Assembly (NCBI GenBank): GCA_964599175.1
Contig: CAZREE010000005.1
Location: 1 to 34,274, forward strand
Source: an uncultured Syntrophorhabdus sp.
GTDB lineage: Bacteria; Desulfobacterota; BSN033; UBA1163
Direction: 5' to 3'
Length of the DNA: 34,274 nt
Under the pieces are notes generated by a model. That model ran no database searches and was not told the origin of the DNA. It saw only the letters and a program-made list of their open reading frames with translations. Position 1 is the stretch's first letter. The number at the start of each line of letters is the position of its first letter. Made by a program: the position numbers and the translations under genes. Positions 116 through 24,154 of this stretch are shown in pieces.

Positions 116-2026
116 ATGGGAAATGTAAAAGTGATCTTTCAACCCTCTGGCAGGCAAGGAGAGATTGAAGAGGGAAAAACCATTCTCGAAGCCTCCCAGA
201 AATTAGCGGTAGGGATTGAATCCCTTTGCGGAGGGAAAAAGACATGTGGAAAATGCAAGGTCAGGGTATTAGAAGGGGAATTTTCCCCTTTCACAGATGA
301 GGAGCCCCAATTTATATCGGAATCAGAAAGACGGGAAGGGTATAGGCTGTCCTGTTCAGCCAAAATTAGAGAAGATGCCCTGATCTTCGTTCCTGAAGAA
401 AGTCTGATCCAAAGGCAGGTTATAAAAAAGCAGATAACCGGAAGACCGGTTGAACTCAAACCGGCCATCCTTCCTTATTTTGTAGAACTCCATCCCCCCT
501 CTTTCAACGATCTTTTAGGAGATTTCGACCGCCTCAAAAAAGCCCTCACTGAAAGATTTCATCTTCCTTCCCTCGAAATCGACTCCCCTGCCCTTCTGAA
601 ACTCCCTTTTACTCTCCGGGAAGACAACTGGAAAGTGACCGCCCTGGTATGGATGGATAAAAAGATCCTCGATGTCAAACCTGGAAGGATAAATGATATT
701 TTCGGTCTTGCAGTGGATATCGGAACAACGACCGTGGCCGCGTATCTCTGCAATTTGCGAAATGGAGAGATCGTGACGACCAAATCGATCATGAACCCTC
801 AGGTCGCTTATGGCGAGGATGTGATGTCGAGGATCAACTATACGATCATCCATCCGGATGGCCTCGAACGCTTGCATCGGTCGATTGTGGATGGACTGAA
901 CCGGCTAATAAAAGCCGCTGTTGAGGACGTCCACATCTCGCCGGAGGATATCCTCGAACTGGCCATCGTAGGCAATACGCTCATGCACCATCTTTTTCTT
1001 GGGATTGATCCTCGATATCTGGGGATAGCCCCTTTCCCTCCTGTTCTAAACCAACCCCTGGACATCAAGGCAATGGATTTGGGATTAAAGGTCCACCCCT
1101 CTGCCAATGTTCATCTTCTCCCCGTCGAAGCAGGGTTCGTGGGGCCGGACAATGTTGGCGTTCTGATCGCTGAGGATCCCCATCTGAGAGACGAAATCGT
1201 CCTTATTATAGATGTCGGAACCAACGGCGAACTTGTCATGGGCAATAGAAACCGACTCCTTTCTGCTTCCTGTGCCACAGGGCCGGCTTTCGAGGGAGCC
1301 CATATTCGGTTCGGGATGAGAGCAGCGCCAGGAGCCATAGAGCGAGTAAGGATCGATACCGATACCATGGAAGTGGATTTCAAAGTGATCGGAGAAGAGA
1401 ATTGGAAGTCAAATTCAAGAGATATAAAAGCAAAGGGGATCTGCGGGTCTGGGGTCATCGATGCGATTGCCGAACTATACCGGAGCGGAGTGGTCCACAA
1501 GAGTGGCGGCTTTAAAAGAGAATGTGCTTCTCCACGTATGATCATCTCTGATGGAAAACCGGAATTTGTAATCGCCTGGAAAGAAGAGACCTCCTTCGGC
1601 AAAGAAATTTCGATCACCCAGCAGGATATAAGAAATATCCAGCTGGCAAAAGCGGCTCTCTATGCAGGCGCAAAATTGATGATGAAAAAATTGGACATTG
1701 AGAGACCCGACCGGGTGATTCTCGCCGGCGCCTTTGGAAGTCACATCGATCCTGAAAAAGCAATGATCCTTGGAATGTTCCCTGACTGTGAGTTAAACGA
1801 TATTTCTGCGGTTGGCAACGCCGCTGGGGACGGCGCAAGAATGGCCCTCTTGAACATAGACAAAAGGCTGGAAGCGCAGGAAATAGCCCAAAAAGTCGAA
1901 TATATGGAACTCACGACCGAACCTGATTTCCAAAAGGAATTCATTGAGGCCATGCCAATTCCACACATGAAAGATCCCTTCCCCCATCTCAGGGGGATAA
2001 TCAGAGATGACATTCTGGATCAATAG
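116..2026 (+). CDS. 2Fe-2S ferredoxin / ASKHA-ATPase fusion, corrinoid reductive activator-like (RACo/AcsV type, DUF4445)
   Basis: 636-aa ORF. The N-terminus has a plant-type ferredoxin Cys pattern (SLCGGKKTCGKCKV ... LSCSA). Actin-fold phosphate motifs follow (LAVDIGTTTV, IIDVGTNGE, CGSGVIDA). Size and architecture match RACo-type activators as I recall them. Confidence 0.8.
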   Translation: MGNVKVIFQPSGRQGEIEEGKTILEASQKLAVGIESLCGGKKTCGKCKVRVLEGEFSPFTDEEPQFISESERREGYRLSCSAKIREDALIFVPEESLIQRQVIKKQITGRPVELKPAILPYFVELHPPSFNDLLGDFDRLKKALTERFHLPSLEIDSPALLKLPFTLREDNWKVTALVWMDKKILDVKPGRINDIFGLAVDIGTTTVAAYLCNLRNGEIVTTKSIMNPQVAYGEDVMSRINYTIIHPDGLERLHRSIVDGLNRLIKAAVEDVHISPEDILELAIVGNTLMHHLFLGIDPRYLGIAPFPPVLNQPLDIKAMDLGLKVHPSANVHLLPVEAGFVGPDNVGVLIAEDPHLRDEIVLIIDVGTNGELVMGNRNRLLSASCATGPAFEGAHIRFGMRAAPGAIERVRIDTDTMEVDFKVIGEENWKSNSRDIKAKGICGSGVIDAIAELYRSGVVHKSGGFKRECASPRMIISDGKPEFVIAWKEETSFGKEISITQQDIRNIQLAKAALYAGAKLMMKKLDIERPDRVILAGAFGSHIDPEKAMILGMFPDCELNDISAVGNAAGDGARMALLNIDKRLEAQEIAQKVEYMELTTEPDFQKEFIEAMPIPHMKDPFPHLRGIIRDDILDQ

Positions 2027-2392: not shown

Positions 2393-3652
2393 ATGAATCC
2401 CGTCATCATTCCAAGATCGGAGCATCCCATTTCAAGATCCATGATCAATGAGGAAGCCCTCAAGGTCCTCTACCGGCTTGATCGCCACGGGTTTTTAGCT
2501 TATCTTGTCGGAGGAAGCGTCCGGGATCTCCTCCTCGGAAAGACTCCAAAGGATTTTGATGTCGCCACCAATGCCCATCCCCATGAGATCCATTCCCTTT
2601 TTAAAAACAGCCGGATCATTGGCCGACGCTTTCGCTTAGCCCACGTCTTTTTCAAAGGAGGGAAAGTGGTCGAGGTGTCAACCTTCAGGAGCCATTCTGA
2701 ATTTGAGGAGATTCAAACGGAAGATGGGCAAACCGTTCGAACCGACAGCTTCGGCGCCCCCGAGGAGGATGCCCTGCGCCGGGATCTCACGATCAATGGC
2801 CTCTTTTATAATATCTCCGATTTCACCATCATAGATTATGTGGGAGGGATGGCTGATCTTGAACAGAAGATGATCCGGACCATCGGCGATCCGGATGAGA
2901 AGTTTACACAGGATCCTGTCCGGATGATCCGGGTCATCCGGCATGCCGCCCACACAGGATTTCATATCCAAGAGAGGACCTATCAAGCCCTTCTGACCCA
3001 CCGGGAAGAGATAAAAAAATGTTCATCCTCTCGCGTCAGGGATGAATTTCTTAGAGAATTGAAAGAAGGCGCCTCAGCCTCTTCCCTCAAAATGATGATC
3101 GAAACCGGACTGATCTTCTCGCTCTTTCCGGACCTCAGGAGGGCCCTGGGAGATGGCGCAATTTCTGTAAAGAAGAATCGGGAATACCTCCTCTCCCTCT
3201 TTGGCCTGATAGACCAATTGATGAAGATCGGCCGACCCGTCCCGGATTCGATTCTCCTGGCCTGTTTTATTTCTCCCTTCATCCGGGCGCTTCCCTCCGA
3301 GCATCCCTTTCTCGGGAAGAAAGAGCAGGCGCACTACCGCACGCAAACGATCCGTTGGGCAGTCCACCATCTTTTCAATCCTTTCTCGTTTCCAAAGGGG
3401 CCCAAGGAGGCCTCCATCCAAGTGCTGACGGCTCAATCGAATTTAAGGTATTCTCTTCAGAAAGGGATATTGCCCAAACGATTTCGGGCAAAGAAATATT
3501 TTAAGGAAGCCGTTCTCTTTTTCGGGCTCGAAGCAGAGGCAAAAGGGGAGAAAACGCCCCGGTTGATTCGCAATGCAGCGCCTTCTGACTTTTTACCCTG
3601 GTGGCCAAAGGAATTCAGGGGCAGAAGGAAGTTCAGACATCATAAACCCTGA
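2393..3652 (+). CDS. pcnB: poly(A) polymerase I (class II nucleotidyltransferase)
   Basis: GGSVRDLLLGKTPKDFDVAT nucleotidyltransferase motif, the PAP-type IGRRFRLAHV motif and a basic C-terminal tail. GAGGAG Shine-Dalgarno sequence upstream. Confidence 0.8.
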   Translation: MNPVIIPRSEHPISRSMINEEALKVLYRLDRHGFLAYLVGGSVRDLLLGKTPKDFDVATNAHPHEIHSLFKNSRIIGRRFRLAHVFFKGGKVVEVSTFRSHSEFEEIQTEDGQTVRTDSFGAPEEDALRRDLTINGLFYNISDFTIIDYVGGMADLEQKMIRTIGDPDEKFTQDPVRMIRVIRHAAHTGFHIQERTYQALLTHREEIKKCSSSRVRDEFLRELKEGASASSLKMMIETGLIFSLFPDLRRALGDGAISVKKNREYLLSLFGLIDQLMKIGRPVPDSILLACFISPFIRALPSEHPFLGKKEQAHYRTQTIRWAVHHLFNPFSFPKGPKEASIQVLTAQSNLRYSLQKGILPKRFRAKKYFKEAVLFFGLEAEAKGEKTPRLIRNAAPSDFLPWWPKEFRGRRKFRHHKP

Positions 3653-3677
3653 GTGGAGATAAGGTTCTTTAAAGCGT

Positions 3678-5021
3678 TTAATGTTTGCCTTCAAACTCCC
3701 TACGATCAAGGACCCGTTTTGCCTTGCCTTCGTATCGGGGCAATGACCCGGGCGGATGTAAAACCACCTCAATGCTCATCCCCAGACGTCCATAAACGCC
3801 CTGGCCAATTTTTTCCTCAATGGTCTTTCTCCGGTTCATATCCTGCCAGGCGTCGAATTGGACTTCGGAATGAACGGTCAGTTTATCCAGACTGTCTTTC
3901 GGTCGGTCGATCACAATCTGCCAGCCATCCCCGACCCCAGGAGTTGAATTGAGAATATCTTCAATCTGAGAGGGAAAGACCAGCGTGCTTCTGACTTTCA
4001 AGACGTCATCGGTTCGGCCTGTTATTTGTTGAATTCGAGGATGGGCCGCCCTTCCGCAAGGACATCCAAACGCATCCTTGGACAGCGCGGTTACATCACG
4101 CGTTCGCCAGCGGATCAATGGCGTGGCTTCCCGGGTAAGCGTGGTGACCACCAATTCCCCTTCCTCTCCAGGTTCAAGCCTCCTTCCGGTGACGGGGTCA
4201 ACCACTTCGACAAAATAGTGATCCGCCAGGATATGCATTTCGCAGGACAGTCGTGAAAATTGACAGCTGTGGCCGACGGTAGGACCTCCCAGCTCGGTGA
4301 TCCCGTATCCTTCATGCCATCCGAATCCTTCCGGCATAAGAGACTCAACCCGTCGTCTCAGGGCTGGAGCTGCAGGCTCGCCACCGATGTGGCTGGTCCG
4401 AAGTTTCCAGTCTTTTTTCGGGTCAATTCCGTTTTTTTCAGCCACATCAACCAAGTAACTTATGAAGGAAGGGGTCGTGGTGATGGCATGAAATCCAAGG
4501 TCCTTTAAATACTGTATTGCAGCCAACGTCCTTCCAGGACCGGCCGGGAAAATGACGGCGCCAATGGCCTCGGCCCCTGCATCCATTCCCGGCCCGCCCA
4601 TAAAAAGACCATAACCTGCGCATTGATAGATGAGATCGTGTCGTTGAAATCCCATGCCGATAAAGATCCGGCCCATCTGTTCCCGAAGGGTTTCTATCCA
4701 GTCCTTCCTGGTAAAGCCCACCAACGTCGGAACGCCTGTTGTTCCCGAAGAGGCGGCGAACCGGTGGATCCGGCCCAGAGGGACCCCCAGGATGCCATAG
4801 GGATATAAAGCCCTCAACTCCTTTTTCTCCGTAAAAGGAACAACGGCTAAATCATCAGTGGTCCGGATATGCTTTGGTTTGATGCCGTTTTTATCGAAGA
4901 GGTCCTGGTAATAAGGAATCTCCCGATAGCATCGATCCGCCAGGACGCGAAGCCGCTCATTCTGGATTTCACGGAGTTTCTGTGAGGAGATCGTATCGAA
5001 TTCATTAAAGAAGCTTGACAT
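3678..5021 (-). CDS. phenylacetate-CoA ligase family (PaaK / F390-synthetase-like) AMP-forming acyl-CoA ligase
   Basis: 447 aa. The N-terminus has the typical PaaK layout (LREIQNERLR..., YYQDLF, VVPFTEKKELR) and the ASSGTTGVPT adenylation motif. AAGGAGAG Shine-Dalgarno sequence. Sits 29 nt downstream of the B12 subunit gene. Confidence 0.8.
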   Translation of the reverse strand: MSSFFNEFDTISSQKLREIQNERLRVLADRCYREIPYYQDLFDKNGIKPKHIRTTDDLAVVPFTEKKELRALYPYGILGVPLGRIHRFAASSGTTGVPTLVGFTRKDWIETLREQMGRIFIGMGFQRHDLIYQCAGYGLFMGGPGMDAGAEAIGAVIFPAGPGRTLAAIQYLKDLGFHAITTTPSFISYLVDVAEKNGIDPKKDWKLRTSHIGGEPAAPALRRRVESLMPEGFGWHEGYGITELGGPTVGHSCQFSRLSCEMHILADHYFVEVVDPVTGRRLEPGEEGELVVTTLTREATPLIRWRTRDVTALSKDAFGCPCGRAAHPRIQQITGRTDDVLKVRSTLVFPSQIEDILNSTPGVGDGWQIVIDRPKDSLDKLTVHSEVQFDAWQDMNRRKTIEEKIGQGVYGRLGMSIEVVLHPPGSLPRYEGKAKRVLDRREFEGKH

Positions 5022-5050
5022 GCGACTCTCCTTTTCTCACAAGGATGTGG

Positions 5051-5446
5051 CTACTCCTTGATGAGCTCATTTATTTTTTGAAGGATCGTATCCCGCATTG
5101 TGCCGGGAGTAAAGATGGCGGAGACGCCCATCGCTTGCAATGCCTTGACATCGTCAGGAGGAACAACTCCGCCGACCATGAGTTTCTTATCCTCCAGACC
5201 ATTCCGGCCCAACAGGTCGAGCAACTTCCGGCAATAAAAGAGGTGCCCGCCGCCTAAAAAACTGCACCCGATCAGGTCTGCGTTCTCTTGAAGGACTGCC
5301 TTGACCATTCCTTCAGGAGTATTATAGAGCCCTAAATAAATCACCTCGAATCCGGCATCGGCCAGCCATTTTGATACGATCCGGATTCCATTGTCATGAC
5401 CATCCAGGCCGATCTTTCCGATGAGAACCCTTTTCTTATGTTTCAT
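5051..5446 (-). CDS. acyl-CoA mutase small subunit, cobalamin-binding domain
   Basis: 131 aa with DxHxxG (LDGHDNG), SxL (CSFLGGGH) and GG (MVGGVVPP) B12-binding motifs. AAGGAGGG Shine-Dalgarno sequence. Confidence 0.85.
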   Translation of the reverse strand: MKHKKRVLIGKIGLDGHDNGIRIVSKWLADAGFEVIYLGLYNTPEGMVKAVLQENADLIGCSFLGGGHLFYCRKLLDLLGRNGLEDKKLMVGGVVPPDDVKALQAMGVSAIFTPGTMRDTILQKINELIKE

Positions 5447-5466
5447 CTTCCCTCCTTAACTTTTAA

Positions 5467-5508
5467 CCCCTCCCTGCCTCCCCTTAAACTAAGGGGAGGT
5501 GTGGAGGG
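5467..5508. repeat. GC-rich intercistronic stem-loop between the mutase large and small subunit genes
   Basis: Left arm CCCCTCCCTGCCTCCCCTTA (5467-5486), loop AAC, right arm TAAGGGGAGGTGTGGAGGG (5490-5508). 16 of 19 positions pair, with a 3-nt internal mismatch. Confidence 0.6.
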
Positions 5509-5573
5509 CTTATGTCATTCATCGCGCCCCTGTTTTCATACCTCATTCATTCTTTTTCATAGATCTTTTGACA

Positions 5574-7211
5574 TTAAACATAGTGAACCTTAAAATCATA
5601 GGCCTCTCGCAGGGTGTCGCTGATTTCACCTAAAGTCGCCTGGTGATCTACGGTTTCAAGGATTACCTGAAAAAGGTTGTTGTTGGGATTTTTCTTCACC
5701 TGGTCATAAAGGTTTTTTAAAGCCCGCTGGACCCATTCCCTGTTTCTTGACCCTTTGTATTCTCTGATATATCGAATCCGTTTCTCCTGCATATCGGAGG
5801 CCTGCCGGAAGATGTCGATCTTGACCTCCTCATCCTCTTCTCGTTCCATGTTGACCCCGATCTGAATCAACTCTCCCTCTTCCAATTGACGGGCGTACTC
5901 ATATCGGGCCTCATTGATCTGATTCTCAATCCATTGGGATTTGAAACACTCCAGAAACCCTCCCTTCTTCTCGATGATCTCCATCAGGGCCAGAACACCC
6001 TCCTCAATCTCATTCGTCAATTTCTCAATCACATAAGAGCCTCCGAGGGGGTCCGCTGTGCGGCAGACGCCTGTTTCATAGGCGATCATCTGCTGTGTCC
6101 GAATGGCCAGCACCTGAGCCTCCTCTGTGGGAAGGGCATAGCCTTCGTCATAGGAGGTGGTATGGACCGACTGACTTCCTCCTAAGACAGCCGCCAGGGT
6201 TTGAATCGCAGAGCGCACAATATTATTCAAAGGTTGTTGAGCGGTCAGAGGCAATGAGGAGGTCTGAACAGCGATCCGGCACAGGCAGCTTCTTGGGTCC
6301 TTGGCGCCAAAGGTTTCTTTCATCAGGCGGGCCCATATGCGGCGCATGGCCCTCAGCTTGGCAATCTCCTCTAAAAAGTCTATATGGACGCTTGCAAAAA
6401 AAGCAATCCGCGGAGCAAACCGGTCAATCTCTATCCCCCTTGCCAAAAGGCGGCGGATATATTCCGATGCCAGACAGAAGGCAAAGGCAATCTCCTGAAC
6501 AGCATTGACCCCTGACTCTCTGATGTTGCGAGGATTGACATTGAGAATATTCCATTTCGGGCTGTGCTGGAGACAAAACTCCATCACATCGCAAGCAATT
6601 TTCATTGCAGGGTCGAGCGGAAAAAAATGGGTCCCCGACTGATATGTCGGGCCGACCAGTTGCGTAATGGCGCAGTTCATAATGGTTCCGATCAATTTGG
6701 AAGGGTCAACGTTCTGTTTTTTCGCAACCAGATAATACATCGCCATGATGGGGGCTGAATAGGGAGGATTCACGATCAGCGTCGTGCTCACTTTATCCAG
6801 AGGAATCTCATTAAAAAGTGTCTCCATATCTTCGAGGGTGGCCACAGAGGTCCCCACCAATCCTATATCCCCTTCAGCCAAAGGATGGTCAGGATCCAGA
6901 CCCAATTTGGTAGGGATATCCAGGTCGATGTTAAGCCCTGTCATCCCTTTCTTCAAAAGGAAATGAATGAGGCGGTTGCTCTCCAGAGGCGACCCGAATC
7001 CGCTCTGCTGTCTTCGGGTCCATAAACGGCCTCGATACATGTCCCGGTAAACCCCTCTGGTAAAGGGGAAGACGCCGGGGTCCGGCGGATCAAGAGGTGA
7101 ATCCTGACGGGTATAAAACTCCTTCATCTCAATGCCTGAAAGGGTCCTGAAATGGGGAAGTTTTTCGCCTTTTAGATAACGGTCGTATTCAATCTTATCT
7201 TTGCTTTTCAT
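5574..7211 (-). CDS. methylmalonyl-CoA-mutase-family acyl-CoA mutase, large (substrate-binding TIM barrel) subunit, divergent
   Basis: 545 aa with conserved family blocks (PFTRG, DLDIPT, FAPRIAFF, VQTSS, LNNIVRSAIQ, SVHTTSYDE). GAGGAG Shine-Dalgarno sequence. The start overlaps the tetR stop by 17 nt. Confidence 0.85.
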   Translation of the reverse strand: MKSKDKIEYDRYLKGEKLPHFRTLSGIEMKEFYTRQDSPLDPPDPGVFPFTRGVYRDMYRGRLWTRRQQSGFGSPLESNRLIHFLLKKGMTGLNIDLDIPTKLGLDPDHPLAEGDIGLVGTSVATLEDMETLFNEIPLDKVSTTLIVNPPYSAPIMAMYYLVAKKQNVDPSKLIGTIMNCAITQLVGPTYQSGTHFFPLDPAMKIACDVMEFCLQHSPKWNILNVNPRNIRESGVNAVQEIAFAFCLASEYIRRLLARGIEIDRFAPRIAFFASVHIDFLEEIAKLRAMRRIWARLMKETFGAKDPRSCLCRIAVQTSSLPLTAQQPLNNIVRSAIQTLAAVLGGSQSVHTTSYDEGYALPTEEAQVLAIRTQQMIAYETGVCRTADPLGGSYVIEKLTNEIEEGVLALMEIIEKKGGFLECFKSQWIENQINEARYEYARQLEEGELIQIGVNMEREEDEEVKIDIFRQASDMQEKRIRYIREYKGSRNREWVQRALKNLYDQVKKNPNNNLFQVILETVDHQATLGEISDTLREAYDFKVHYV

Positions 7212-7812
7212 CCTGTTCTCCTCTGACCTTTTCTATTTTTTCTCCATAGATCCCCTGAAATAAAAGAGTCGTTAACTGCCATGTTAATGCTCTGGGAGCG
7301 ACAGCTCCCTTTGGGTCATACCACTGATAAATCCAATTGACGAGCGCAAAGAAGGAGAAGGTCAGAATGTTCGGGTGAATGAATCGACATCCTGCCTCCC
7401 CGGATAAACGACGGATGACCTTTCGGCAGATTTCAAAATACCGGCGCTCCTGTTTCTTGATTATCGCCAAACGCCTCCCCCTCAGATACTCCCGCTCATG
7501 GAGAAGGCATTTCGCTTCATAATAATGGTTGACGTAAAGGTGGATATGGCGTTGAAGAATGAAGGCGATCTGCTCCCTCGGAGAGGACATGGATTCCAGA
7601 TCCTTCTCCAAATTGGATAACGTGAGGTCCATATAGTTGTTAAGGATGTTAAATAAAAGGTCCTCCTTGTTGCCAAAGTAATGATAGAGCCCCCCCAAGC
7701 TCATGCTCGTGGCCTTGGCAATATCCCTCATCGTCGTGTTTGCGAAACCCTTTTGATGGATGAGCTGCGAGGAGGTCTTGCAGATGTAATTGAATTTTTC
7801 GTCAAAGCCCAT
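7195..7812 (-). CDS. TetR/AcrR family transcriptional regulator
   Basis: HTH segment TTMRDIAKATSMSLGGLYHYFGNKEDLL. I prefer the ATG at 7812 over the ORF-track TTG at 7878, because that TTG is itself the TTGACA -35 box and the operator lies between the two. Neither start has a clear Shine-Dalgarno sequence. Confidence 0.75.
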   Translation of the reverse strand: MGFDEKFNYICKTSSQLIHQKGFANTTMRDIAKATSMSLGGLYHYFGNKEDLLFNILNNYMDLTLSNLEKDLESMSSPREQIAFILQRHIHLYVNHYYEAKCLLHEREYLRGRRLAIIKKQERRYFEICRKVIRRLSGEAGCRFIHPNILTFSFFALVNWIYQWYDPKGAVAPRALTWQLTTLLFQGIYGEKIEKVRGEQDEKQR

Positions 7813-7828
7813 TGGTCGTAAATTCAAA

Positions 7829-7842
7829 CGAACGTCCGTTCG
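7829..7842 (-). promoter_or_regulatory. candidate TetR operator (inverted repeat CGAACG-GA-CGTTCG)
   Basis: Inverted hexamers lie 7 nt downstream of the -10 box. The extended motif ACCGAACG(GACG)TTCGTTTGA recurs upstream of TRAP-1 at 11383-11399. Confidence 0.55.
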
Positions 7843-7849
7843 GTATGTT

Positions 7850-7878
7850 CTTCTAACAGTTTGCCCCCTTTTTGTCAA
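7850..7878 (-). promoter_or_regulatory. candidate sigma-70 promoter of the tetR-mutase-ligase unit
   Basis: Minus strand reads TTGACA (7878-7873), 17-nt spacer, TAGAAG (7855-7850). The TRAP-1 promoter uses the same hexamers. Confidence 0.5.
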
Positions 7879-8015
7879 GATGATTATTACGGCAGCAATC
7901 TACCGACATTGAGAGAAACCATGCCCGGAGTAAAGCCTCCATCGGGGATGAGGCCGTAGGAATAAGTTCGCTCGGATTCATTAACTCTGAAATGGAGTTT
8001 CATGGTGACTCCAGA

Positions 8016-9320
8016 TTACTTCACCATCAGTTTGGGCAGGACCAGAGCAATCTGAGGAAAAGCGATCAGGATAGCGGTGCAGACCACTATGGCGCCGAGA
8101 AAGGGGAAGATTCCTTTGAAGATGGTCTCCAGGGGCACATCACCCGCCACCCCTTTGATGACATATACATTTATGCCCACCGGCGGCGTAATGACTCCCA
8201 TCTCACCTACCAGCACAATGATCACCCCAAACCATATGGGGTCAAAGCCGAGTTTGAGGATAACCGGATACAGAATGGGAACGGTAAGGGTAATCAGGGC
8301 GAGTGAATCCATAAAGCAGCCGCCAATTAAATAGCCAAAGATGATAAACCCCATGATCACATAGGGAGACATTCCCAACCCCCCTACCCACTCTGACAAC
8401 TCAAAGGGAACTCTGGTCACTGCCATGAAGCGACCGAAGATGGTTGCCCCGGCGACAATAAGAAAGACCATCGCTGTTATCCGGGTTGTCTCGGATAAAG
8501 AAGTAAGAAAACCCTGCCAGCTCAGCGTTCGCCTGACTATGGCAATGATCAGCGTTCCAATAGCGCCAACCGCACCGGATTCCGTAGGAGTAAACCATCC
8601 GGCAAAAAGACCTCCGATGACCAGAAGAAACAAAATCAACATTTCTATGACGCCTGAGAGAGAAGCAATCCGCTCTTTCCAGGTGGCCTCATCTCCCGGA
8701 GGGGCGAGCGAAGGTCTAAACCGACACAGGATGAGGACCGTGATGATAAACAGGGCTGTCAGGAGCAATCCCGGGAGAATGCCTGCGGCAAAGAGCTTCC
8801 CTATAGATTCCCCGGTCATGATCCCGTAGATGATCAAGACCGTGCTCGGCGGAATCAGGATGGCCAGGCTGCCCGCAGAGGCAACACAGCCTGTAGCCAG
8901 TGAGTCGTCGTAGCGAAATCTTTTCATCTCAGGCAGGGTGACCTTGCCCATGGCTGCCGCTCCTGCAATGGTTGACCCGCACATCGCGCCAAATCCGGCG
9001 CAGGCCATGATGGTTGATACAGCCAACCCTCCCCGCATTTGCGCAAAAAACTTATGCGCGGCGTTGTAAAGGCGCCCCCCCATGCCCGAATGGAAGGCAA
9101 GCGTGCCCATAAAGACAAACATGGGGACGACCGTTAAACTATAGGATGAGAAGAGCACCCAAAAATCTTTAGCCAGAAGGCTGAGGCCCCCGTCTACGGA
9201 AACGACGTAGGAAAAGCCGAGAAAACCAATAAGAGCCATCGCATAGGCTACCGGCATCCGTAAAAGAAATAAAAAAACAAGAAGCAGAATACTGACGATG
9301 GTAATCGTGCCTGAACTCAT
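8016..9320 (-). CDS. dctM: TRAP transporter large permease (TRAP-1)
   Basis: 434-aa polytopic membrane protein typical of DctM. ATGA overlap with the dctQ stop. Confidence 0.9.
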   Translation of the reverse strand: MSSGTITIVSILLLVFLFLLRMPVAYAMALIGFLGFSYVVSVDGGLSLLAKDFWVLFSSYSLTVVPMFVFMGTLAFHSGMGGRLYNAAHKFFAQMRGGLAVSTIMACAGFGAMCGSTIAGAAAMGKVTLPEMKRFRYDDSLATGCVASAGSLAILIPPSTVLIIYGIMTGESIGKLFAAGILPGLLLTALFIITVLILCRFRPSLAPPGDEATWKERIASLSGVIEMLILFLLVIGGLFAGWFTPTESGAVGAIGTLIIAIVRRTLSWQGFLTSLSETTRITAMVFLIVAGATIFGRFMAVTRVPFELSEWVGGLGMSPYVIMGFIIFGYLIGGCFMDSLALITLTVPILYPVILKLGFDPIWFGVIIVLVGEMGVITPPVGINVYVIKGVAGDVPLETIFKGIFPFLGAIVVCTAILIAFPQIALVLPKLMVK

Positions 9321-9802
9321 CCTTTCACCGCCTTAACCAATGATTTAATAATGTCAATCAGAATCACAATGCAGAGTAAGCCGCAACCAAAGGCGATCGC
9401 ATAGAGATAGGGATAAAAAGGAACAAGAGCCGTCATGGACAATTCACCCGAACGCCGCATGTCGTTGCCTAAAACAATGCACTGCCAGGTGATTAAAACA
9501 AATATGCCAAGACTAAGCATGTGCGTCAGGATGCCGATTATCCCTTGAACTCGCTCCGGAAGTCGCATCATGATCAGCTCTACCGCTATGTGGCCTTTTT
9601 TCAAAGCACAGTAAGCAAGAGCGAGGGCAACCAGGATTGCCCCTAAAAAACCGACAAAGTCAAAAGTTCCATAGATAGGCTTCCAGACCAAACGCCCCAG
9701 GATATTGCCGACGACAAGAAGCATCATGGCAATTACGGCGACCTGTGCAATCCGGTCACAGAACTCGCTCACCCAATGAACCAAGCGTTCAATAAAAGCC
9801 AT
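9317..9802 (-). CDS. dctQ: TRAP transporter small permease (TRAP-1)
   Basis: 161 aa with 4 predicted TM helices. AAGGAG Shine-Dalgarno sequence. Position between dctP and dctM. Confidence 0.85.
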   Translation of the reverse strand: MAFIERLVHWVSEFCDRIAQVAVIAMMLLVVGNILGRLVWKPIYGTFDFVGFLGAILVALALAYCALKKGHIAVELIMMRLPERVQGIIGILTHMLSLGIFVLITWQCIVLGNDMRRSGELSMTALVPFYPYLYAIAFGCGLLCIVILIDIIKSLVKAVKG

Positions 9803-9927
9803 TGAGTCTAACTCCTTTTTAGTATCCTCTATGGAGGGCGCCCTTCACAGATTATTCTGTCTGTTGCGGACACCCTCCATAAAGTTTTTTCATATATGAT
9901 GGTCTCGTAAAAAGCCCTGATTTGTCG

Positions 9928-10019
9928 CCCTGAACTCGGTTTCGAGTCGTACCGACTTGTTTCAGGGTCTCGTAAGCGCTTCATTTTGTTAGATGCTGAA
10001 CCAAGTTCAGCATGACATT
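9928..10019 (+). repeat. composite double-hairpin repeat, copy A (inverted copy at 31990-32060)
   Basis: CTTGTTTCAGGGTCTCGTAA (9956-9975), a 13-nt spacer, then TTAGATGCTGAACCAAGTTCAGCATGACATT (9989-10019). The reverse complement of 31990-32060 has the same modules with the same 13-nt spacing. Confidence 0.75.
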
Positions 10020-10081
10020 CTTTCTGGTTTCTGGCTTTTTACAAATTCATAATATACGCAATTGCTAACTCGCCCACTACC

Positions 10082-11161
10082 TCAGGGTTTCCAGGGTTCA
10101 AATTTCATTTTATTATATTTCTCCACGATCCTGCCTGCCTCTTTAACCATCTCTTCCCCGGGGAGCCCTCTGGCCTTCAGTGAGGCGGCATATTCCCCGG
10201 CTATCGGCTCTAACAGTTTTTTCAGCTTTGCCACTTCAGCTTCAGGGAGATACAGAAGCTCATGGCCTCCGGTTTGCCGTTTGGCAAAATCCGCCCCCCT
10301 CTTCTGCATAAATTGCCAGATTTGGCCGGCTTCCTTCATCGCTTCCTCGGCAACCGCATCGAAAGCATCCTGAAGGTCCTTGGGCAACGCCTTCCACTTA
10401 GCCAGGTTCATGCCAACCCAGAAGAACTCGGAATAGAAGTGGGGAACAAAGGTGGAATAATCAAAAACCTCGTGATGTTTCCATCCTTCAAGCGTTTCAG
10501 CCGGTGAGATAATGGCATCGATGATTCCCTTTTGCGCTGCAAGGTAAGTCTCGCCCATCACCATCGCTACCGGCTCTCCCCCAACTGCCTTAACCCCCTG
10601 AATCCCTGGTCCGGTAACTCTTATTTTCAGGCCTTTCATATCCGCCACGGTGCGAACCGGTTTCTTGGTATGCAGCCAGCCGGGTCCGGTGGCGTAGACA
10701 TAAAGCACCTTTGTATCGTCAAATTCTTTCGGCTTATATTTTCTGTAGAACTCCCAGATGGTGTGAGCCGCAGCATCAGAACTTTCCGGCGGGGCGATTC
10801 CAGGCTGATTGAGGGTCAACATTGCCGGGAATTTCCCGGGGGTCCAGCCAAGCGATGTGGTGCCCGAATCGGCAATGCCCTTGACCACTCCATCGTAGAT
10901 CTCGGCTCCTCCGAGTAAAGTCGAAACGGGAAAATATTTTATGTCAAGAGCATACTTTCCTCCTGCTGCCTTTTCCACCATCTTAAAATACCGTGGCATT
11001 TGATCGGCATGCATAAAATGGGTAACCGGCCAGGGATGGACAAACCCAAGCGTTATCTTTTCTGTTTTGGGTTGAGCATAGGCTTCCGGCATTGTCCGGA
11101 TGCCAAGAGATAATGCGATCAAAATCGCCATTGACAAACCAAATAAAGCTCTCTTTCTCAT
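10082..11161 (-). CDS. dctP: TRAP transporter substrate-binding protein (TRAP-1), DctP family
   Basis: Start re-set to the ATG at 11161, which has a GGAGAGGAG Shine-Dalgarno sequence and the signal peptide MRKRALFGLSMAILIALSLGIRTMPEAYAQ. DctP-type block ADMKGLKIRV. Confidence 0.85.
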   Translation of the reverse strand: MRKRALFGLSMAILIALSLGIRTMPEAYAQPKTEKITLGFVHPWPVTHFMHADQMPRYFKMVEKAAGGKYALDIKYFPVSTLLGGAEIYDGVVKGIADSGTTSLGWTPGKFPAMLTLNQPGIAPPESSDAAAHTIWEFYRKYKPKEFDDTKVLYVYATGPGWLHTKKPVRTVADMKGLKIRVTGPGIQGVKAVGGEPVAMVMGETYLAAQKGIIDAIISPAETLEGWKHHEVFDYSTFVPHFYSEFFWVGMNLAKWKALPKDLQDAFDAVAEEAMKEAGQIWQFMQKRGADFAKRQTGGHELLYLPEAEVAKLKKLLEPIAGEYAASLKARGLPGEEMVKEAGRIVEKYNKMKFEPWKP

Positions 11162-11205
11162 TCCTTTTCTCCTCTCCTTTGCAAGTGATTTTGAATTTGT
11201 TTTAC

Positions 11206-11250
11206 TTCCCTTTCCTCTATCTTCCTTTCCCACCTCCCTTCTTCTCCTCC
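11206..11250 (-). repeat. 45-nt polypurine (mRNA sense) tract in the dctP-1 leader
   Basis: 43 of 45 plus-strand bases are pyrimidines. The mRNA sense strand reads GGAGGAGAAGAAGGGAGGTGGGAAAGGAAGATAGAGGAAAGGGAAG, with several SD-like GGAGG motifs. Confidence 0.8.
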
Positions 11251-11314
11251 GATTACCATCACGCGGTTTTTTGAGATTGACATAGGGCAACGTTCTTTTT
11301 TTTAAAAACCATCC

Positions 11315-11332
11315 CATTCTCCATGGAGAATG
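11315..11332. promoter_or_regulatory. perfect 18-bp palindrome in the dctP-1 leader
   Basis: CATTCTCCATGGAGAATG equals its own reverse complement. On the mRNA strand it is followed by GGGATGG and then TTTTT. Confidence 0.5.
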
Positions 11333-11387
11333 CCTAATAGGTTTTCAACCGGAGCCCTCTTCAGGTCTCAACCGAGATGGCGTCAAA

Positions 11388-11397
11388 CGAACGTTCG
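11388..11397 (-). promoter_or_regulatory. candidate TetR operator upstream of TRAP-1 (CGAACGTTCG)
   Basis: Perfect 10-bp palindrome within ACCGAACGTTCGTTTGA (11399-11383, minus strand), 11 nt downstream of the TAGAAG -10 box. Confidence 0.55.
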
Positions 11398-11408
11398 GTC
11401 AACGCAAT

Positions 11409-11437
11409 CTTCTAACAATAATTGTTTTCCATGTCAA
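11409..11437 (-). promoter_or_regulatory. candidate sigma-70 promoter of the TRAP-1 operon
   Basis: Minus strand reads TTGACA (11437-11432), 17-nt spacer, TAGAAG (11414-11409). Confidence 0.5.
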
Positions 11438-11474
11438 GAGAAATTTTGATGCGGTTCACTCGGGCATGACCGCA

Positions 11475-11777
11475 TCAATAAATCTCGAAGCGAGAGGGAA
11501 GAAAGGTGATGAGATGCGGAAAGATGAACAGTAGAGCCGCACAAAGAATCATCCCGATCAAAAAGGGATAGACTCCGCTGTAAATCTCGCCAAACGGCAC
11601 TTTGGTGATGTTTCTCACCACGAAGACGTTGACGGCCACAGGGGGGATCACGACTCCGATCATGACAAAAATATGGAGAATGAAGATCATGATCACATAG
11701 GGTGGAAGATGCCCCCCCCGCTCGATCAGGAATACGGTTCCTTCTGATCTTCTGTCCTGATGGTCCGAAGAATCCAA
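11475..11777 (-). pseudogene. remnant of a dctM 3' end (C-terminal ~70 codons recognisable)
   Basis: The translation ...MIGVVIPPVAVNVFVVRNITKVPFGEIYSGVYPFLIGMILCAALLFIFPHLITFLPS matches the dctM-2 C-terminus VGVVIPPVAINVFVVKNITKVPFGVIYSGVYPFLISLVVGATLLFLFPQLATYLPS. Nucleotide similarity is visible by eye over about 11575-11665. No N-terminal 350 codons are present. Confidence 0.7.
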
Positions 11778-11813
11778 ACAAAGGCGACAAAGGTTTGGGA
11801 AGCGGCGTTCCTC

Positions 11814-15141: not shown

Positions 15142-15801
15142 ATGTATTACGATCCGGAAAAGAATGATCATGGCCTTCCCCACAACCCCTTTAAGGCTTG
15201 TGTCGTGCCGCGCCCCATTGGTTGGATCTCAACCGTCAGCCCCGGAGGAATACACAATCTCGCGCCTTACAGTCAGTTTCAAAACCTTACCTTCGACCCT
15301 CCCTTCGTGATGTTTGCAGCCAATCAGAACACCCGGGGCAACCGAAAGGACTCTGTCGTCAACGCGGAACAAACCGGCGAATTCGTCTACAACATGGCAA
15401 CCTACGACCTGCGAGAGGCAGTGAACCGGTCGGCTACAGAGGTACCGCCAGAGGTGGATGAATTCGAACTTGCCGGCCTGACCAAGGCGCCCTCGATCCG
15501 GGTAAAGCCTTGTCGGGTTGCGGAATCGCCCATTCAGTTCGAGTGCCGTTATCACCAGACACTGCGGCTGCCCGGCAACGGACTCATGGGCACGGTGGAT
15601 GTCATCATTGGCAGGGTGGTTCTCATCCACATTCAAGACGACGTCATCGCTCCGGACGGCCGGATTGATATATTGCGCATTCGTCCCCTTGCCCGACTCG
15701 GTTACTACGATTATACGGCTGTGGAATCCTTTTTCGAGATGGTTATTCCTGACGCCAATGAAGCGTTACTCGCAGGCCTTGAAGGGAAACAAAAAAAATA
15801 A
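15142..15801 (+). CDS. flavin reductase-like (FMN-binding split-barrel) protein
   Basis: 219 aa. VVPRPIGWISTVSPGGIHNLAPYSQF is typical of the flavin reductase domain family. Confidence 0.75.
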   Translation: MYYDPEKNDHGLPHNPFKACVVPRPIGWISTVSPGGIHNLAPYSQFQNLTFDPPFVMFAANQNTRGNRKDSVVNAEQTGEFVYNMATYDLREAVNRSATEVPPEVDEFELAGLTKAPSIRVKPCRVAESPIQFECRYHQTLRLPGNGLMGTVDVIIGRVVLIHIQDDVIAPDGRIDILRIRPLARLGYYDYTAVESFFEMVIPDANEALLAGLEGKQKK

Positions 15802-15841: not shown

Positions 15842-16915
15842 TTAGGTGATCAATGAAGAAATGACGTTGTCTATTGCAAGCCTTTTTAATGTCGCTCTGC
15901 GATTCTCCATAAAAGATTCGATCCCTGCTTTCAATTTCAGTGAGACCATCCTCTCTTTAGGCAACTCTTCTTCAAGGCGGAACATGACAGAACGGAATGA
16001 CTCAACCAGGCCTTTTGAAATATCGTCCTTTCCCGCTTCCCCTGTGAAGCGAATCGTTCCGTTCCCATATTCAAACTCTCCGGCAAATGGATCAAGAAAT
16101 CCAAACTCTTCTGATTTCTCAATCAGGGCCTTCTTGAAGGCCTTCTTGAAGGTTCCTCCGGAAGAAAGACTGTCCACTATTTTTTCAGAACTGGAAAGAA
16201 ACTCCTGGAAGAGGAGAAGAAGCTCCTTGAACCTTTCCTCTCTTTCCATGGGTTCCGCCCCGTTTCCATCGACCAGGCCCGTTTCTTTCTGCTCTAATTC
16301 AACCTCCCCAACGAGCCGGGGCTCGCTTTTTTTCCCGTAAACGCTAAAAAATGCGCCGTGTTGTGTGGTGTTTTCAATGAAGACAGGAATGGACATGCGG
16401 CCGAAGACCGAAGAGCCTGTCTTAGGGGTGGTGAACATTTCCATTGGTTCGCCCTCTTCGAGAAAGAGGATCCCCATGGGGCGATGTTCTTGGGTTGCCA
16501 CTTCAATATAGCCCGTAAGCTTTTCTTCCTTCAATTTCACAAGAAACTGATCGAACCGGACGAAATCGGTGGAGAGGTCTTTAAAGAGCAGGGGTTGGTT
16601 AAGGTTGTTGACGATAAGGGCTACCTGCTCAGGAGGCAAACGGTAGATGCTGAGCACCCCATCTTTCTTTTTTGAGAAGGCAAAAAGTGTCTTCACCGCC
16701 TCTTTTCCGATAATGCTTCCGGAACCCTCTCCGGATTGAACTTCCCCATTGACGATCTCTCCAGAGTCTATAAAGAGAAATCCTCTCCCCTCGGGAAAGT
16801 CCATCTCAATCGTTCCGCAGAAACCCTCTAAACTCATGGTGTCAATCAATGCAACAAGGTCTGTATAGGCGGTCGATAAATTTTTATGAACGGCTTCTCC
16901 CCTGGGGAAGATCAT
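15842..16915 (-). CDS. hypothetical soluble protein with two PATAN/DUF4388-like repeats and a helical C-terminal domain
   Basis: 357 aa with GGAGG Shine-Dalgarno sequence. Two internally similar units: LEGFCGTIEMDFPEGRGFLFIDSGEIVNG... and KLTGYIEVATQEHRPMGILFLEEGEPMEM.... The family call rests on resemblance only. Confidence 0.45.
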   Translation of the reverse strand: MIFPRGEAVHKNLSTAYTDLVALIDTMSLEGFCGTIEMDFPEGRGFLFIDSGEIVNGEVQSGEGSGSIIGKEAVKTLFAFSKKKDGVLSIYRLPPEQVALIVNNLNQPLLFKDLSTDFVRFDQFLVKLKEEKLTGYIEVATQEHRPMGILFLEEGEPMEMFTTPKTGSSVFGRMSIPVFIENTTQHGAFFSVYGKKSEPRLVGEVELEQKETGLVDGNGAEPMEREERFKELLLLFQEFLSSSEKIVDSLSSGGTFKKAFKKALIEKSEEFGFLDPFAGEFEYGNGTIRFTGEAGKDDISKGLVESFRSVMFRLEEELPKERMVSLKLKAGIESFMENRRATLKRLAIDNVISSLIT

Positions 16916-16931
16916 CTTTGCCTCCGCAAAA

Positions 16932-17042
16932 AGTTCGGAGTCATGAGCTCGTAGTTCGGAGGTTTTTAGATTCTTAATACACCATTTAATATCGGAATTC
17001 TTTATCCTAATCTCCGAACTCCGAACTAAATTACTCCGAACT
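16932..17042. repeat. inverted arrays of the 9-mer AGTTCGGAG / CTCCGAACT
   Basis: AGTTCGGAG at 16932-16940 and 16953-16961. CTCCGAACT at 17012-17020 and 17034-17042, plus CCGAACT at 17021-17027. Confidence 0.75.
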
Positions 17043-18004
17043 TAACTTTTTCCTTCTTTCCTTTTTTGCAATCGCTCGATGGCGGCTTTAACGCTCGTCT
17101 GCATCCTTTCTATCGAATCAGCCAATACGGCCACCTCTCCCTTGGCCTTTACATTTATCGGGGTGTCCAGATCTCCCATGCTGATCTTATCCGCCACCTC
17201 TGCGAGGTGGAGAATGGGTTTGATCACAGATCGGGCATAGAAGAAGATCCTCACCAACAGGATGAGAATGACACCAAGGACGACGATGTAAAAGATTCTG
17301 ATTCTGTTCTCATACTCCTCTGAATATCTTCTCTCAATCTCTTTCATCTTCGACTCAATCGCTTTTGAGGGTTTTGAGAATTCGTCGATGTAAGTGGTTG
17401 CCGCCACAATAAGGTCCGTTCCCTTAACCGCCGCCAGATACATATACTTGGGGCGGATCTTTCCATCCGCATCCTTCCAGTCATAATAGCCGGAGGCCGG
17501 ACCCCTCAGGCTCGCCTCCAGAATCTTCCAGAAGGCGGGAAATCGATCTGAAAGCTGACGCAGGTCGGACCCGACGATCTGGGGGTTGACATGAAAATGG
17601 TTGATCGCATTCGTATCATGGACAGCCGTATAACCGGTCTCTCCAACCTTCTGGACAGCGATCTCCTTCAATGCGGGGTCTCTCAAGATGTCTTCTCTTT
17701 TCATCTTTGGAGGCCGGGATTTGATGAAGATCTCCATCTGGGCAGCTACATCTGTGGCTTTCTCCCGGATGATCTTCTCTCCCATTCGGTCCAGAGAAGA
17801 CTGAGATTCCTTTGTGGAAGCGATGTTCAATTCCTTTAAACTCTCGGACCCAATGTCTTTGATGCTGGTAAACCGGTATTCTCCTACATCCCAACTATAG
17901 AAGACCAGGCTCCCAATAATAGCAAAGGCGACCAGAATCGGGATAACAACTCCGAGCACCAGTTTCGGTAACAGGCCAAATCTCACTTTCTGTTTATCTG
18001 CCAT
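17042..18004 (-). CDS. membrane sensor: TM - Cache-like extracytoplasmic domain - TM - HAMP, with no output domain
   Basis: Start re-set to the ATG at 18004 (AAGGAGG Shine-Dalgarno sequence). TM helices LLPKLVLGVVIPILVAFAIIGSLVFY and IFYIVVLGVILILLVRIFFYA. Cache-like segment YYDWKDADGKIRPKYMYLAAVKGTDLIVAATTYIDEF. HAMP segment SVIKPILHLAEVADKISMGDLDTPINVKAKGEVAVLADSIERM. The protein ends about 25 aa later. Confidence 0.7.
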   Translation of the reverse strand: MADKQKVRFGLLPKLVLGVVIPILVAFAIIGSLVFYSWDVGEYRFTSIKDIGSESLKELNIASTKESQSSLDRMGEKIIREKATDVAAQMEIFIKSRPPKMKREDILRDPALKEIAVQKVGETGYTAVHDTNAINHFHVNPQIVGSDLRQLSDRFPAFWKILEASLRGPASGYYDWKDADGKIRPKYMYLAAVKGTDLIVAATTYIDEFSKPSKAIESKMKEIERRYSEEYENRIRIFYIVVLGVILILLVRIFFYARSVIKPILHLAEVADKISMGDLDTPINVKAKGEVAVLADSIERMQTSVKAAIERLQKRKEGKS

Positions 18005-18221
18005 AAAGACCTCCTTAAAAGGGACAAAGTATTCATTCAATGGGGAACGGTAACGAGGCCCGTATCGTTCGTAAAAGGCCGCGTTTATCATCTTTTAATT
18101 CTTATTTACATAACCGTCACCGAATGACGAAACGGGCTTCGTAACTTTAACCGTAACCCAGGAAATTGGTTGATTCTTGTTACTCGTGCTTAACGACCCT
18201 GTCATGAATGCTTTCTCAGAA

Positions 18222-21949: not shown

Positions 21950-21983
21950 ACTGACTCCTTATCCCATTTGATTAGGGGTCTTT

Positions 21984-22034: not shown

Positions 22035-22043
22035 ATGGGTGTG

Positions 22044-24094: not shown

Positions 24095-24154
24095 TTCCTC
24101 TGTGTTGGGTAAATTAAACCGCTCCGTCTTCAGCCTTTAAATTTAAAACTCTTT

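Follow-up and report, generated by a model that had tools for sequence, protein, structure and literature searches.

A candidate import, CoA-activation and B12-dependent rearrangement module with a divergent acyl-CoA mutase in an uncultured Thermodesulfobacteriota bacterium

Gene content of the locus

The stretch of DNA analyzed here, 34,274 nt at its full length and hereafter called the window (contig CAZREE010000005.1; all positions are window coordinates), belongs to an uncultured Thermodesulfobacteriota bacterium whose nearest relatives are metagenome-assembled genomes (MAGs) labelled Syntrophorhabdus, Syntrophaceae or Deltaproteobacteria. On its minus strand lie genes for a tripartite ATP-independent periplasmic (TRAP) transporter, a TetR-type regulator, the two subunits of a putative B12-dependent acyl-CoA mutase and an acyl-CoA ligase of the PaaK family. 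We consider it probable that together these genes constitute an inducible module for the import, CoA-activation and adenosylcobalamin (AdoCbl)-dependent rearrangement of one carboxylic acid or a narrow class of such acids. The table of open reading frames (ORFs) and their translations was read, and protein families were assigned by Pfam and NCBIfam profile scans; the set of genes, the operator common to both units, fold, pocket residues, clade isolation and synteny were all read from sequence.

Each ORF was found exactly where an earlier reading of the letters alone (the sequence-only reading) had placed it. The first unit encodes, in order, all three components of a TRAP transporter. dctP1 (10082-11161) specifies a solute-binding protein of 359 aa (Pfam DctP, PF03480, 120 bits); its ATG at 11161 yields a signal peptide, and the DctP of the nearest relative, locus L091, has 357 aa. 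The small membrane subunit dctQ1 (9317-9802; DctQ, PF04290) and the large permease dctM1 (8016-9320; DctM, PF06808, 346 bits; TIGR00786, 337 bits) follow with an overlap of 4 nt.

The second unit starts with tetR (7195-7812), whose ATG at 7812 gives a TetR_N plus TetR_C_24 protein of 205 aa, matching L091. The gene for the large, substrate-binding subunit of the mutase (5574-7211; 545 aa; Pfam MM_CoA_mutase, 571 bits), which is of the paralogue type that we call ‘a’, overlaps the end of tetR by 17 nt. The B12-binding small subunit (5051-5446; 131 aa; Pfam B12-binding; TIGR00640, 131 bits) lies 127 nt further on and is separated by 29 nt from the ligase gene (3678-5021; 447 aa; AMP-binding plus AMP-binding_C_2). 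A convergent pcnB (2393-3652) ends 25 nt from the ligase stop. As the sequence-only reading had observed, genes for a MeaB-type chaperone or an adenosyltransferase do not occur in the window (profile scan of every gene-like ORF of at least 150 aa), and both functions must be encoded elsewhere.

Predicted transcriptional control

The two units share one promoter-operator layout. Upstream of dctP1 (11383-11437, minus strand), a -35 element TTGACA (11437-11432), a 17-nt spacer, a -10-like TAGAAG (11414-11409) and a further 6 nt lead into the operator TTGACCGAACGTTCGTTTGA (11402-11383). Upstream of tetR (7824-7878, minus strand), TTGACA (7878-7873), a 17-nt spacer, TAGAAG (7855-7850) and 6 nt precede the operator CCGAACGGACGTTCGTTTGA (7843-7824), and the tetR ATG follows 11 nt beyond it. 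Both promoters are sigma-70-like; a sigma-70 scanner overlooked them, their -10 elements ending in G, and they were read by eye and from conservation. The operator is a 20-bp imperfect palindrome with the consensus half-sites TCGAACGGAC and GTTCGTTTGA. Its 18-mer has two copies in the whole window, where 0.01 would be expected, and none beyond the two promoters; no operator was found upstream of a second TRAP system, dctP2-dctQ2-dctM2. Promoter and operator are kept at both positions in L091 and upstream of tetR in the related locus L001. The near-identical control regions that the sequence-only reading had described are thus borne out, and its proposal of a single TetR regulon gains support at the sequence and comparative level.

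A TetR_N plus TetR_C_24 protein encoded beside a palindrome that recurs at both promoters has the makings of a TetR repressor with a predicted binding site. Its nearest solved homologues are AibR (98 bits), then KstR2 and FadR, all of them acyl-CoA sensors, and the effector of the window TetR is therefore likely to be an acyl-CoA. The ligand of AibR is isovaleryl-CoA, and AibR sits on DNA when effector-bound. Like these regulators, the window protein combines TetR_N with TetR_C_24 and has a palindromic operator overlapping the promoter of an acyl-CoA pathway, and, as with AibR, its gene heads the operon; unlike them it is only distantly similar in sequence (at most 98 bits).

Between the TRAP1 operator and dctP1 lies a leader of about 220 nt (11162-11382, minus strand) that contains the purine-rich run GGAGGAGAAGAAGGGAGGTGGGAAAGGAAGATAGAGG and is 84% identical to the leader in L091. 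Its predicted fold is no better than that of shuffled sequences (z -0.7) and it has no Rfam match; an Rfam scan of the whole window gave zero matches, and so no cobalamin riboswitch.

Fold, cofactor side and pocket of the mutase

The large subunit belongs to the acyl-CoA mutase family, matching PF01642 with 571 bits over residues 22-538 and TIGR00641 with 536 bits against a cut-off of 304. Among solved structures its best sequence match is HcmA, the large subunit of 2-hydroxyisobutyryl-CoA mutase (HCM; 405 bits, 37% identity), followed by human methylmalonyl-CoA mutase (MCM; 362 bits), Propionibacterium shermanii MCM (305 bits) and the isobutyryl-CoA mutase (ICM) fusion IcmF (191 bits). A single-sequence AlphaFold model (pLDDT 35) was discarded for an alignment-based one (pLDDT 82, pTM 0.86), which has the eight strands of a (beta/alpha)8 barrel and superimposes with TM-scores of 0.91 on HcmA (4r3u_A), 0.89 on MMUT and on MCM 1req, and 0.81 on IcmF (28% identity).

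On the cofactor side the canonical residues are kept. Gln316, within AVQTSS, corresponds to MCM Gln330, the glutamate of HTTSYDE corresponds to MCM Glu370 (HTNSFDE), and both are kept across the clade described below. The small subunit carries LDGHDNG (DxHxxG), CSFLGGG (SxL) and MVGGVVP (GG), the motifs of base-off/His-on B12-binding proteins, with PDB 2yxb (115 bits) and HcmB (99 bits) as its structural matches. The predicted activity would be an AdoCbl-dependent 1,2-rearrangement.

The substrate pocket is altered relative to all studied families. Pocket positions were aligned to 1req, 5req (the Y89F mutant), 2xij and 4r3u, and the numbering was verified by the fact that 5req differs from 1req exactly at the tyrosine of RQYAGF and by counting to Q197, R207, Y243 and H244 in 1req and to I90, D117 and Q208 in 4r3u. 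Gln69 of the window mutase occupies the place of MCM Tyr89 and HCM Ile90; Asp96 that of HCM Asp117, which is Ala in MCM; and Met178 that of MCM Gln197. Ser192, reached after a four-residue insertion, GPTY, within LVGPTYQSG, aligns with MCM Arg207 and HCM Gln208, and Arg228-Asn229 align with MCM Tyr243-His244. The resulting signature, Q-D-M-S-R-N, contrasts with Y-A-Q-R-Y-H in MCM, F-A-Q-Q-Y-H in ICM and I-D-Q-Q-Y-H in HCM, so that the earlier impression of a pocket unlike any characterized family agrees with a residue-level alignment.

The window mutase shares with MCM and ICM the fold and domain family, the cofactor-side residues and the base-off/His-on small-subunit motif, whereas all five of Y89, Q197, R207, Y243 and H244 are replaced. 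Its score against the MCM equivalog NF006944 is 435, against a cut-off of 876. The Phe, Gln and Tyr-His of ICM and IcmF are Gln, Ser and Arg-Asn here, and of the HCM pocket Asp117 alone is kept. The roles of HCM Ile90, Asp117 and Gln208 are those reportedly assigned by Kurteva-Yaneva et al. (2015).

Phylogenetic position

In a protein database the window mutase has more than 100 clusters (90% identity) of homologues that are 76-92% identical to it, and a second tier lies at 61-66%; in metagenomes the clade is common. All of these homologues come from uncultured Thermodesulfobacteriota or ‘Deltaproteobacteria’, and the MAGs with high-identity members are labelled Deltaproteobacteria, Thermodesulfobacteriota, Syntrophorhabdus or Syntrophaceae. 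Across named genomes, identity falls from 78-87% directly to 46% or less, and sequences at 41-46% bear the canonical signatures of MCM (YAQRYHQ) or ICM (FAQQYHQ); to MCM and ICM themselves the window mutase is 28-35% identical. An exhaustive search of 1.84 billion representatives returned a single full-length sequence above 51% identity (57%), with the next full-length sequences, P0243, P0244 and P0245, at 43-46%; these three also have Tyr-Asn and a loop insertion. The motifs RRQQSGFG, NID[FL]D, MNCA..QLVGPT[YF]QSG and N.N.[RY]N[IM]RE.G, which hold the pocket positions, are essentially invariant among 110 clade members.

A neighbour-joining tree, a crude distance tree drawn without bootstrap or other support and without labelled ethylmalonyl-CoA mutase, pivalyl-CoA mutase or IaaG sequences, recovers the clade as monophyletic and sister to P0243, P0244 and P0245, within a large assemblage of homologues that lack Tyr-His; sequences with MCM-, ICM- and HCM-type signatures fall outside it, in a separate group. 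The large subunit thus does not nest in a characterized clade, since tree and Q-D-M-S-R-N signature both place it apart from MCM, ICM and HCM. Asn244 is seen in several mutase lineages that are independent of one another. Literature searches on the gene combination, on Syntrophorhabdus mutases and on IaaGH turned up no paper that describes this clade or its genes.

The ligase is isolated in a similar way. Its homologues fall into tiers of 71-91% and then 51-64% identity, followed by about 43% to generic PaaK-like enzymes, and it forms an isolated clade of its own that shares contigs with the mutase clade. The broad PaaK-type family is clear from PF00501 plus PF14535 and from an alignment to 2y4o that spans residues 7-442, and with PaaK it shares the two-domain architecture and, with PaaK-like ligases of anaerobes, about 42% identity. 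Its scores, however, are about half of the PaaK equivalog cut-offs (TIGR02155, 333 versus 646; NF041878, 327 versus 700). Residues aligned with what we take to be the aryl pocket of PaaK differ in the window ligase (for example, Phe/Tyr to Ala).

Comparison with characterized ligase-mutase systems

By fold and logic the closest known system is HCL-HcmAB-MeaH, the 2-hydroxyisobutyrate pathway of Aquincola tertiaricarbonis, in which the ligase gene hcl and meaH share an operon under a GntR regulator. As in the window, a PaaK-family ligase is encoded with a two-subunit AdoCbl-dependent acyl-CoA mutase, HcmA is the best solved match and Asp117 is kept, and the logic is the same: an acid that cannot enter beta-oxidation is activated and its thioester carbon is then shifted. 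There are differences as well. In the window pocket Ile90 becomes Gln, Gln208 becomes Ser with the four-residue insertion, and Tyr-His becomes Arg-Asn; the ligase scores far higher with PaaK (271 bits) than with HCL (165 bits); no MeaH or other MeaB-family gene is adjacent or elsewhere in the window; the regulator is a TetR, not a GntR; TRAP genes are attached; and the host is a strict anaerobe.

These likenesses invite the reading that the window encodes a third, convergent 2-hydroxyisobutyryl-CoA mutase with its ligase, acting on 2-hydroxyisobutyrate or a homologous tertiary 2-hydroxy acid, as in a conversion of citramalate to 3-hydroxyglutaryl-CoA. The structural match to HcmA, the hydroxyl-binding Asp kept as Asp96 and the operon partnership of a PaaK-family HCL with hcmAB speak for it, and RcmAB of Kyrpidia tusciae, a distant mutase that shares the HCM function, provides a precedent for such convergence. 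Set against this are the loss of Ile90, Gln208 and the His, the relative ligase scores, the regulator and the missing meaH, together with the position of an HCM-type signature (I-D-Q-..-Y-H-Q, P0278) elsewhere in the tree, and we regard the reading as quite improbable.

HCL with HcmAB is not the sole precedent for pairing a PaaK-like ligase with a B12 mutase, as the sequence-only reading had supposed. In the iaa operon of Aromatoleum aromaticum, which serves anaerobic indoleacetate degradation, the binding protein IaaM and the PaaK-type indoleacetate-CoA ligase IaaB are encoded with IaaGH, a B12-dependent arylsuccinyl/benzylmalonyl-CoA mutase. Compared by description, the window resembles it in combining binding-protein uptake, a PaaK-type ligase and a B12 mutase in what there is an anaerobic aromatic-acid pathway; it differs in that the ligase and mutase of the iaa operon do not act on consecutive intermediates.

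Synteny in related genomes

The order TRAP-(tetR)-mutase large subunit-mutase small subunit-ligase-pcnB is common to eight related loci (L001, L002, L004, L006, L007, L008, L086 and L091), so that the tetR-mutase-ligase-TRAP neighbourhood described in the sequence-only reading proves to be conserved. The mutase-ligase pair is accompanied by an uptake system, of the TRAP type in L001, L004, L086 and L091 and of the ABC type in L087. That reading's view of TRAP and mutase genes as one module stands insofar as uptake genes recur beside the mutase-ligase pair; the conserved transporter, however, is of the DctP2 type and lies outside the span that it had described. In the window this second TRAP system (dctP2-dctQ2-dctM2; 14702-11814 on the minus strand) has its own promoter, without the operator. 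It probably belongs to the same pathway, because DctP2-type TRAP genes lie directly upstream of the mutase operon in relatives, and TRAP1 is present in addition only in the window and L091. DctP1 and DctP2 are 39% identical.

Directly upstream of the TRAP1 promoter and operator lies a dctM remnant, a 100-aa ORF (11475-11777, minus strand) in which residues 33-95 (63 aa) are 71% identical to the C-terminus of DctM2; an overlapping ORF at 11434-11790 was dropped as the candidate, the DctM2 match being carried by the former. TRAP1 therefore looks like an insertion or duplication that gained a copy of the tetR promoter-operator.

In most relatives a second large-subunit gene, paralogue ‘b’, sits between ligase and pcnB (L004:9144-10772, L003:585-2210, L005:14-1642, L006:1640-3265); it is missing from the window, where that interval is 3652-3678, and from L002. 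The b type has the motif AYNMRE, with Tyr for Arg228, and differs from the a type consistently at only five positions, 183, 228 (Arg/Tyr), 230, 235 and 273, of which four lie in or beside the predicted pocket. One small-subunit gene serves both. This pattern suggests that the paralogues may represent two tuned specificities.

The same pattern bears on whether the window protein is an enzyme at all. With MCM His244 and Tyr89 both replaced and no chaperone gene nearby, the mutase homologue might be an inactive protein with a binding or regulatory function, or the genes might be mere neighbours with no shared pathway. A tuned-specificity pattern is hard to square with either idea, as are pocket and cofactor-side residues invariant in more than 100 clade members, an intact B12-binding partner, the recurrence of Asn244 in independent lineages, a MeaB gene adjacent to a 62%-identical mutase (in L083) and the operator and synteny that bind the genes together; we judge this explanation very improbable.

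More distant loci offer further context, and the other clade members, on short contigs, add little. In L087, a ligase 60% identical to that of the window follows mutase large and small subunits and is itself followed by genes for an ABC binding protein, a family III CoA-transferase, ABC permeases and MeaB. The L087 mutase is 37% identical to the window protein and belongs to another large uncharacterized family with the signature T-I-x-Q-H-H (248 bits to HcmA). That family, found in Deltaproteobacteria, Rhodocyclales and Rhodospirillales MAGs (L087:79-2967, L089:6459-12095, L090:9174-13578), is likewise tied to PaaK-like ligases, TetR_C_24 regulators and MeaB, for example in a Rhodocyclales MAG.

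Locus L083 carries its 62%-identical mutase in the order TetR-MeaB-large subunit-small subunit. Behind these genes comes a 2-oxoacid oxidoreductase of the POR/VOR type that has a GltD-like NAD(P) subunit, and genes for a class IV aminotransferase and for a peptide-binding protein are also near. An oxidoreductase in the window (23195-27604) is homologous (35-44%) to that of L083. Such a setting would fit a short branched-chain acyl-CoA isomerase (isobutyryl/butyryl, pivalyl/isovaleryl or 2-methylbutyryl/valeryl) that helps to degrade branched fatty acids and valine-type 2-oxoacids in syntrophy, or to salvage them, and this possibility draws further on the pairing of the homologous oxidoreductase with a TRAP system in the window (20139-27604) and on the isovaleryl-CoA specificity of the nearest TetR structure. 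The pocket, however, is polar (Gln, Asp, Ser, Arg, Asn), where that of ICM has Phe and Gln, and canonical ICM- and MCM-type genes occur in the same kinds of genomes; nor do we know of any PaaK-family ligase for simple short fatty acids. A role of this kind seems to us rather improbable.

Clues to the substrate

Two residues of the pocket speak to the substrate. Asp96, like its HCM counterpart, hints at a hydroxyl or an amino group and Arg228 at a carboxylate; from the pocket we would expect a substrate with a polar group (OH or NH2), and probably with a carboxylate or an aryl group too.

The transporters and the distant loci point toward aromatic compounds. The solved TRAP binding proteins nearest to DctP1 and DctP2 are 4n6d, 4pgn/4pgp, 4nap and 7nr2/7nsw. 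4NAP binds a D-amino acid, TRAP proteins from the screen that included it bind indole acids, and TarP-type TRAP proteins bind lignin-derived aromatics; beyond 4NAP, the ligands are those that we take to belong to the individual structure codes. Mutases 63-65% identical to that of the window adjoin a 4-hydroxybenzoyl-CoA-reductase-like molybdenum enzyme (736 bits), a 6-oxocyclohex-1-ene-1-carbonyl-CoA hydratase that exceeds its equivalog cut-off (564 versus 464), an acyl-CoA dehydrogenase, a FadD-type ligase, a TetR_C_24 regulator and benzoyl-CoA-reductase/dehydratase-like genes. By its gene content this locus is an anaerobic aromatic catabolic island. In L091 a corrinoid methyltransferase module adjoins the operon, which we count as a further pointer to aromatic compounds. 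The substrate is probably branched, and aromatic or otherwise substituted; that it is specifically an aryl-substituted branched acid, such as an arylsuccinate, a 2-aryl or a 2-hydroxy-2-aryl acid, has in our estimate somewhat less than an even chance.

The same clues could be read as the mark of a counterpart of the Aromatoleum enzymes, with an IaaB-like ligase and a mutase of the IaaGH (arylsuccinyl-CoA/benzylmalonyl-CoA) type. The substrate would then be (2-aminophenyl)succinate, phenylsuccinate or a comparable product of ring opening that the cell imports. The joint encoding of IaaM, IaaB and IaaGH is in its favour; Asp96 and Arg228 could hold the amine and the free carboxylate; as in iaa, a molybdenum hydroxylase, an acyl-CoA dehydrogenase and a ligase adjoin the 63-65%-identical relatives; and indole-acid binders are among the solved TRAP relatives. 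Yet profile scans of the window found none of the iaa molybdenum hydroxylase, the hydantoinase-like, ring-opening hydrolase, the IaaL CoA-transferase or the IaaF dehydrogenase; the close relatives lack them as well, and molybdenum hydroxylase and acyl-CoA dehydrogenase genes appear only beside the 63-65%-identical mutases. Arg228, moreover, is missing from the b paralogue and from the 61-66% tier, and IaaG and IaaB enter the comparison by description only. We think this explanation unlikely; if it held, the pathway step would be of a known kind and its host would be new.

Other features of the window

Two stem-loops lie within the transcription units. An inverted repeat between the genes for the large and small mutase subunits (5464-5512, minus strand) has a predicted fold of -36 kcal/mol (z -3.1) and no T-run, and the 279-nt gap between dctP1 and dctQ1 holds a very stable hairpin (9821-9884, minus strand; z -5.4), also without a T-run. 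Both may act in transcript processing or stability and so set the ratios of subunits.

A Flavin_Reduct-domain gene (15142-15801, plus strand) is divergent from dctP2 and is kept near the TRAP2-mutase region in L001, L004, L086 and L091; its product might reduce cobalamin for adenosylation. A RACo-type corrinoid activase is encoded at 116-2026 (plus strand), with its counterpart region in L091 at L091:15314-19330. RACo was considered as a repair factor for the mutase cobalamin and ruled out, since in L091 it is part of the corrinoid methyltransferase module, alongside a URO-D-family methyltransferase, a corrinoid protein and another TRAP system; the module is probably a demethylase system outside the mutase unit.

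Between TRAP2 and a third TRAP system (15842-19001, minus strand) are poorly characterized genes for a DUF2226/DUF4388 protein, a Cache-HAMP membrane sensor that lacks an output domain and a further protein with DUF4388, and a Cache-HAMP gene also adjoins the region in L091. The segment 20139-29702 comprises TRAP3, the four-subunit POR/VOR-type 2-oxoacid oxidoreductase, a GntR regulator, a divergent LarA-like 2-hydroxyacid racemase and a DUF1638 gene. The delta subunit of the oxidoreductase is fused to a GltD-like NAD(P)-binding protein, an arrangement like that of phenylglyoxylate dehydrogenase.

Discussion

Import, thioesterification and B12-dependent rearrangement, the sequence of steps put forward by the sequence-only reading, find all their parts intact in the window, and in relatives an uptake system accompanies mutase and ligase, which argues for such a sequence. 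For the module that we consider probable, we infer the regulation, the activity, its direction and the substrate as follows. A TetR dimer bound to the 20-bp palindrome, 6 nt past the -10 element of the two promoters, would block both TRAP1 and its own tetR-mutase-ligase operon. An acyl-CoA product of the pathway ligase or mutase would most likely alter the affinity of TetR for DNA, and release of the repressor by that acyl-CoA would be expected, given that the operon appears to be catabolic. DctP1 would capture the acid in the periplasm for import by DctQM, with DctP2QM probably acting likewise. The PaaK-family ligase would form the acyl-CoA (ATP to AMP and PPi), and the mutase, composed of the 545-aa TIM-barrel subunit and the 131-aa His-on B12 subunit with adenosylcobalamin, would move the thioester carbon to the neighbouring carbon. 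In this way a branched acyl-CoA that is closed to beta-oxidation would be converted into one that is open to it.

Several points weigh against this picture. All of the evidence is computational, and genes for MeaB or an adenosyltransferase are absent from the window. Asn stands in place of His244, a residue that assists MCM catalysis, so that activity is not to be assumed, and the polar pocket is no obvious fit for a phenyl ring. The behaviour of AibR on DNA makes the direction of TetR control uncertain. Finally, close relatives at 76-92% identity offer weak evidence through their synteny alone, and the contexts of distant members vary, including a molybdenum hydroxylase, a 2-oxoacid oxidoreductase, a pyridoxal phosphate-dependent enzyme and an old yellow enzyme homologue.

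The module has a familiar architecture, and what is unfamiliar is the enzyme clade with its His-less pocket. The characterized specificities of acyl-CoA mutases are few, namely methylmalonyl, isobutyryl, ethylmalonyl, 2-hydroxyisobutyryl and pivalyl. It is conceivable, if doubtful, that the clade constitutes an acyl-CoA mutase family with a new function and without the catalytic His244, in which Gln69, Asp96, Arg228 and the four-residue insertion would allow the rearrangement of a substituted, probably aromatic acyl-CoA outside the range of all known mutases. Past discoveries of new mutase specificities have each exposed a pathway and supplied a tool for carbon-skeleton engineering, and a natural His244-to-Asn pocket bears on the need for acid catalysis in radical rearrangements. 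Homologues that lack the canonical Tyr-His pocket abound among the mutases and have not been studied, and this clade is one among many such lineages. Because transporter, ligase and repressor are packaged together here, the substrate is directly discoverable through DctP ligands, ligase panels and TetR effectors.

Were the clade indeed a new family, Syntrophorhabdus-like bacteria of anoxic waters and sediments would possess an anaerobic pathway, so far undescribed, for a naturally abundant acid, and the ‘a’ (Arg228) and ‘b’ (Tyr228) paralogues found in relatives of the window would provide two specificities, for example for two isomers.

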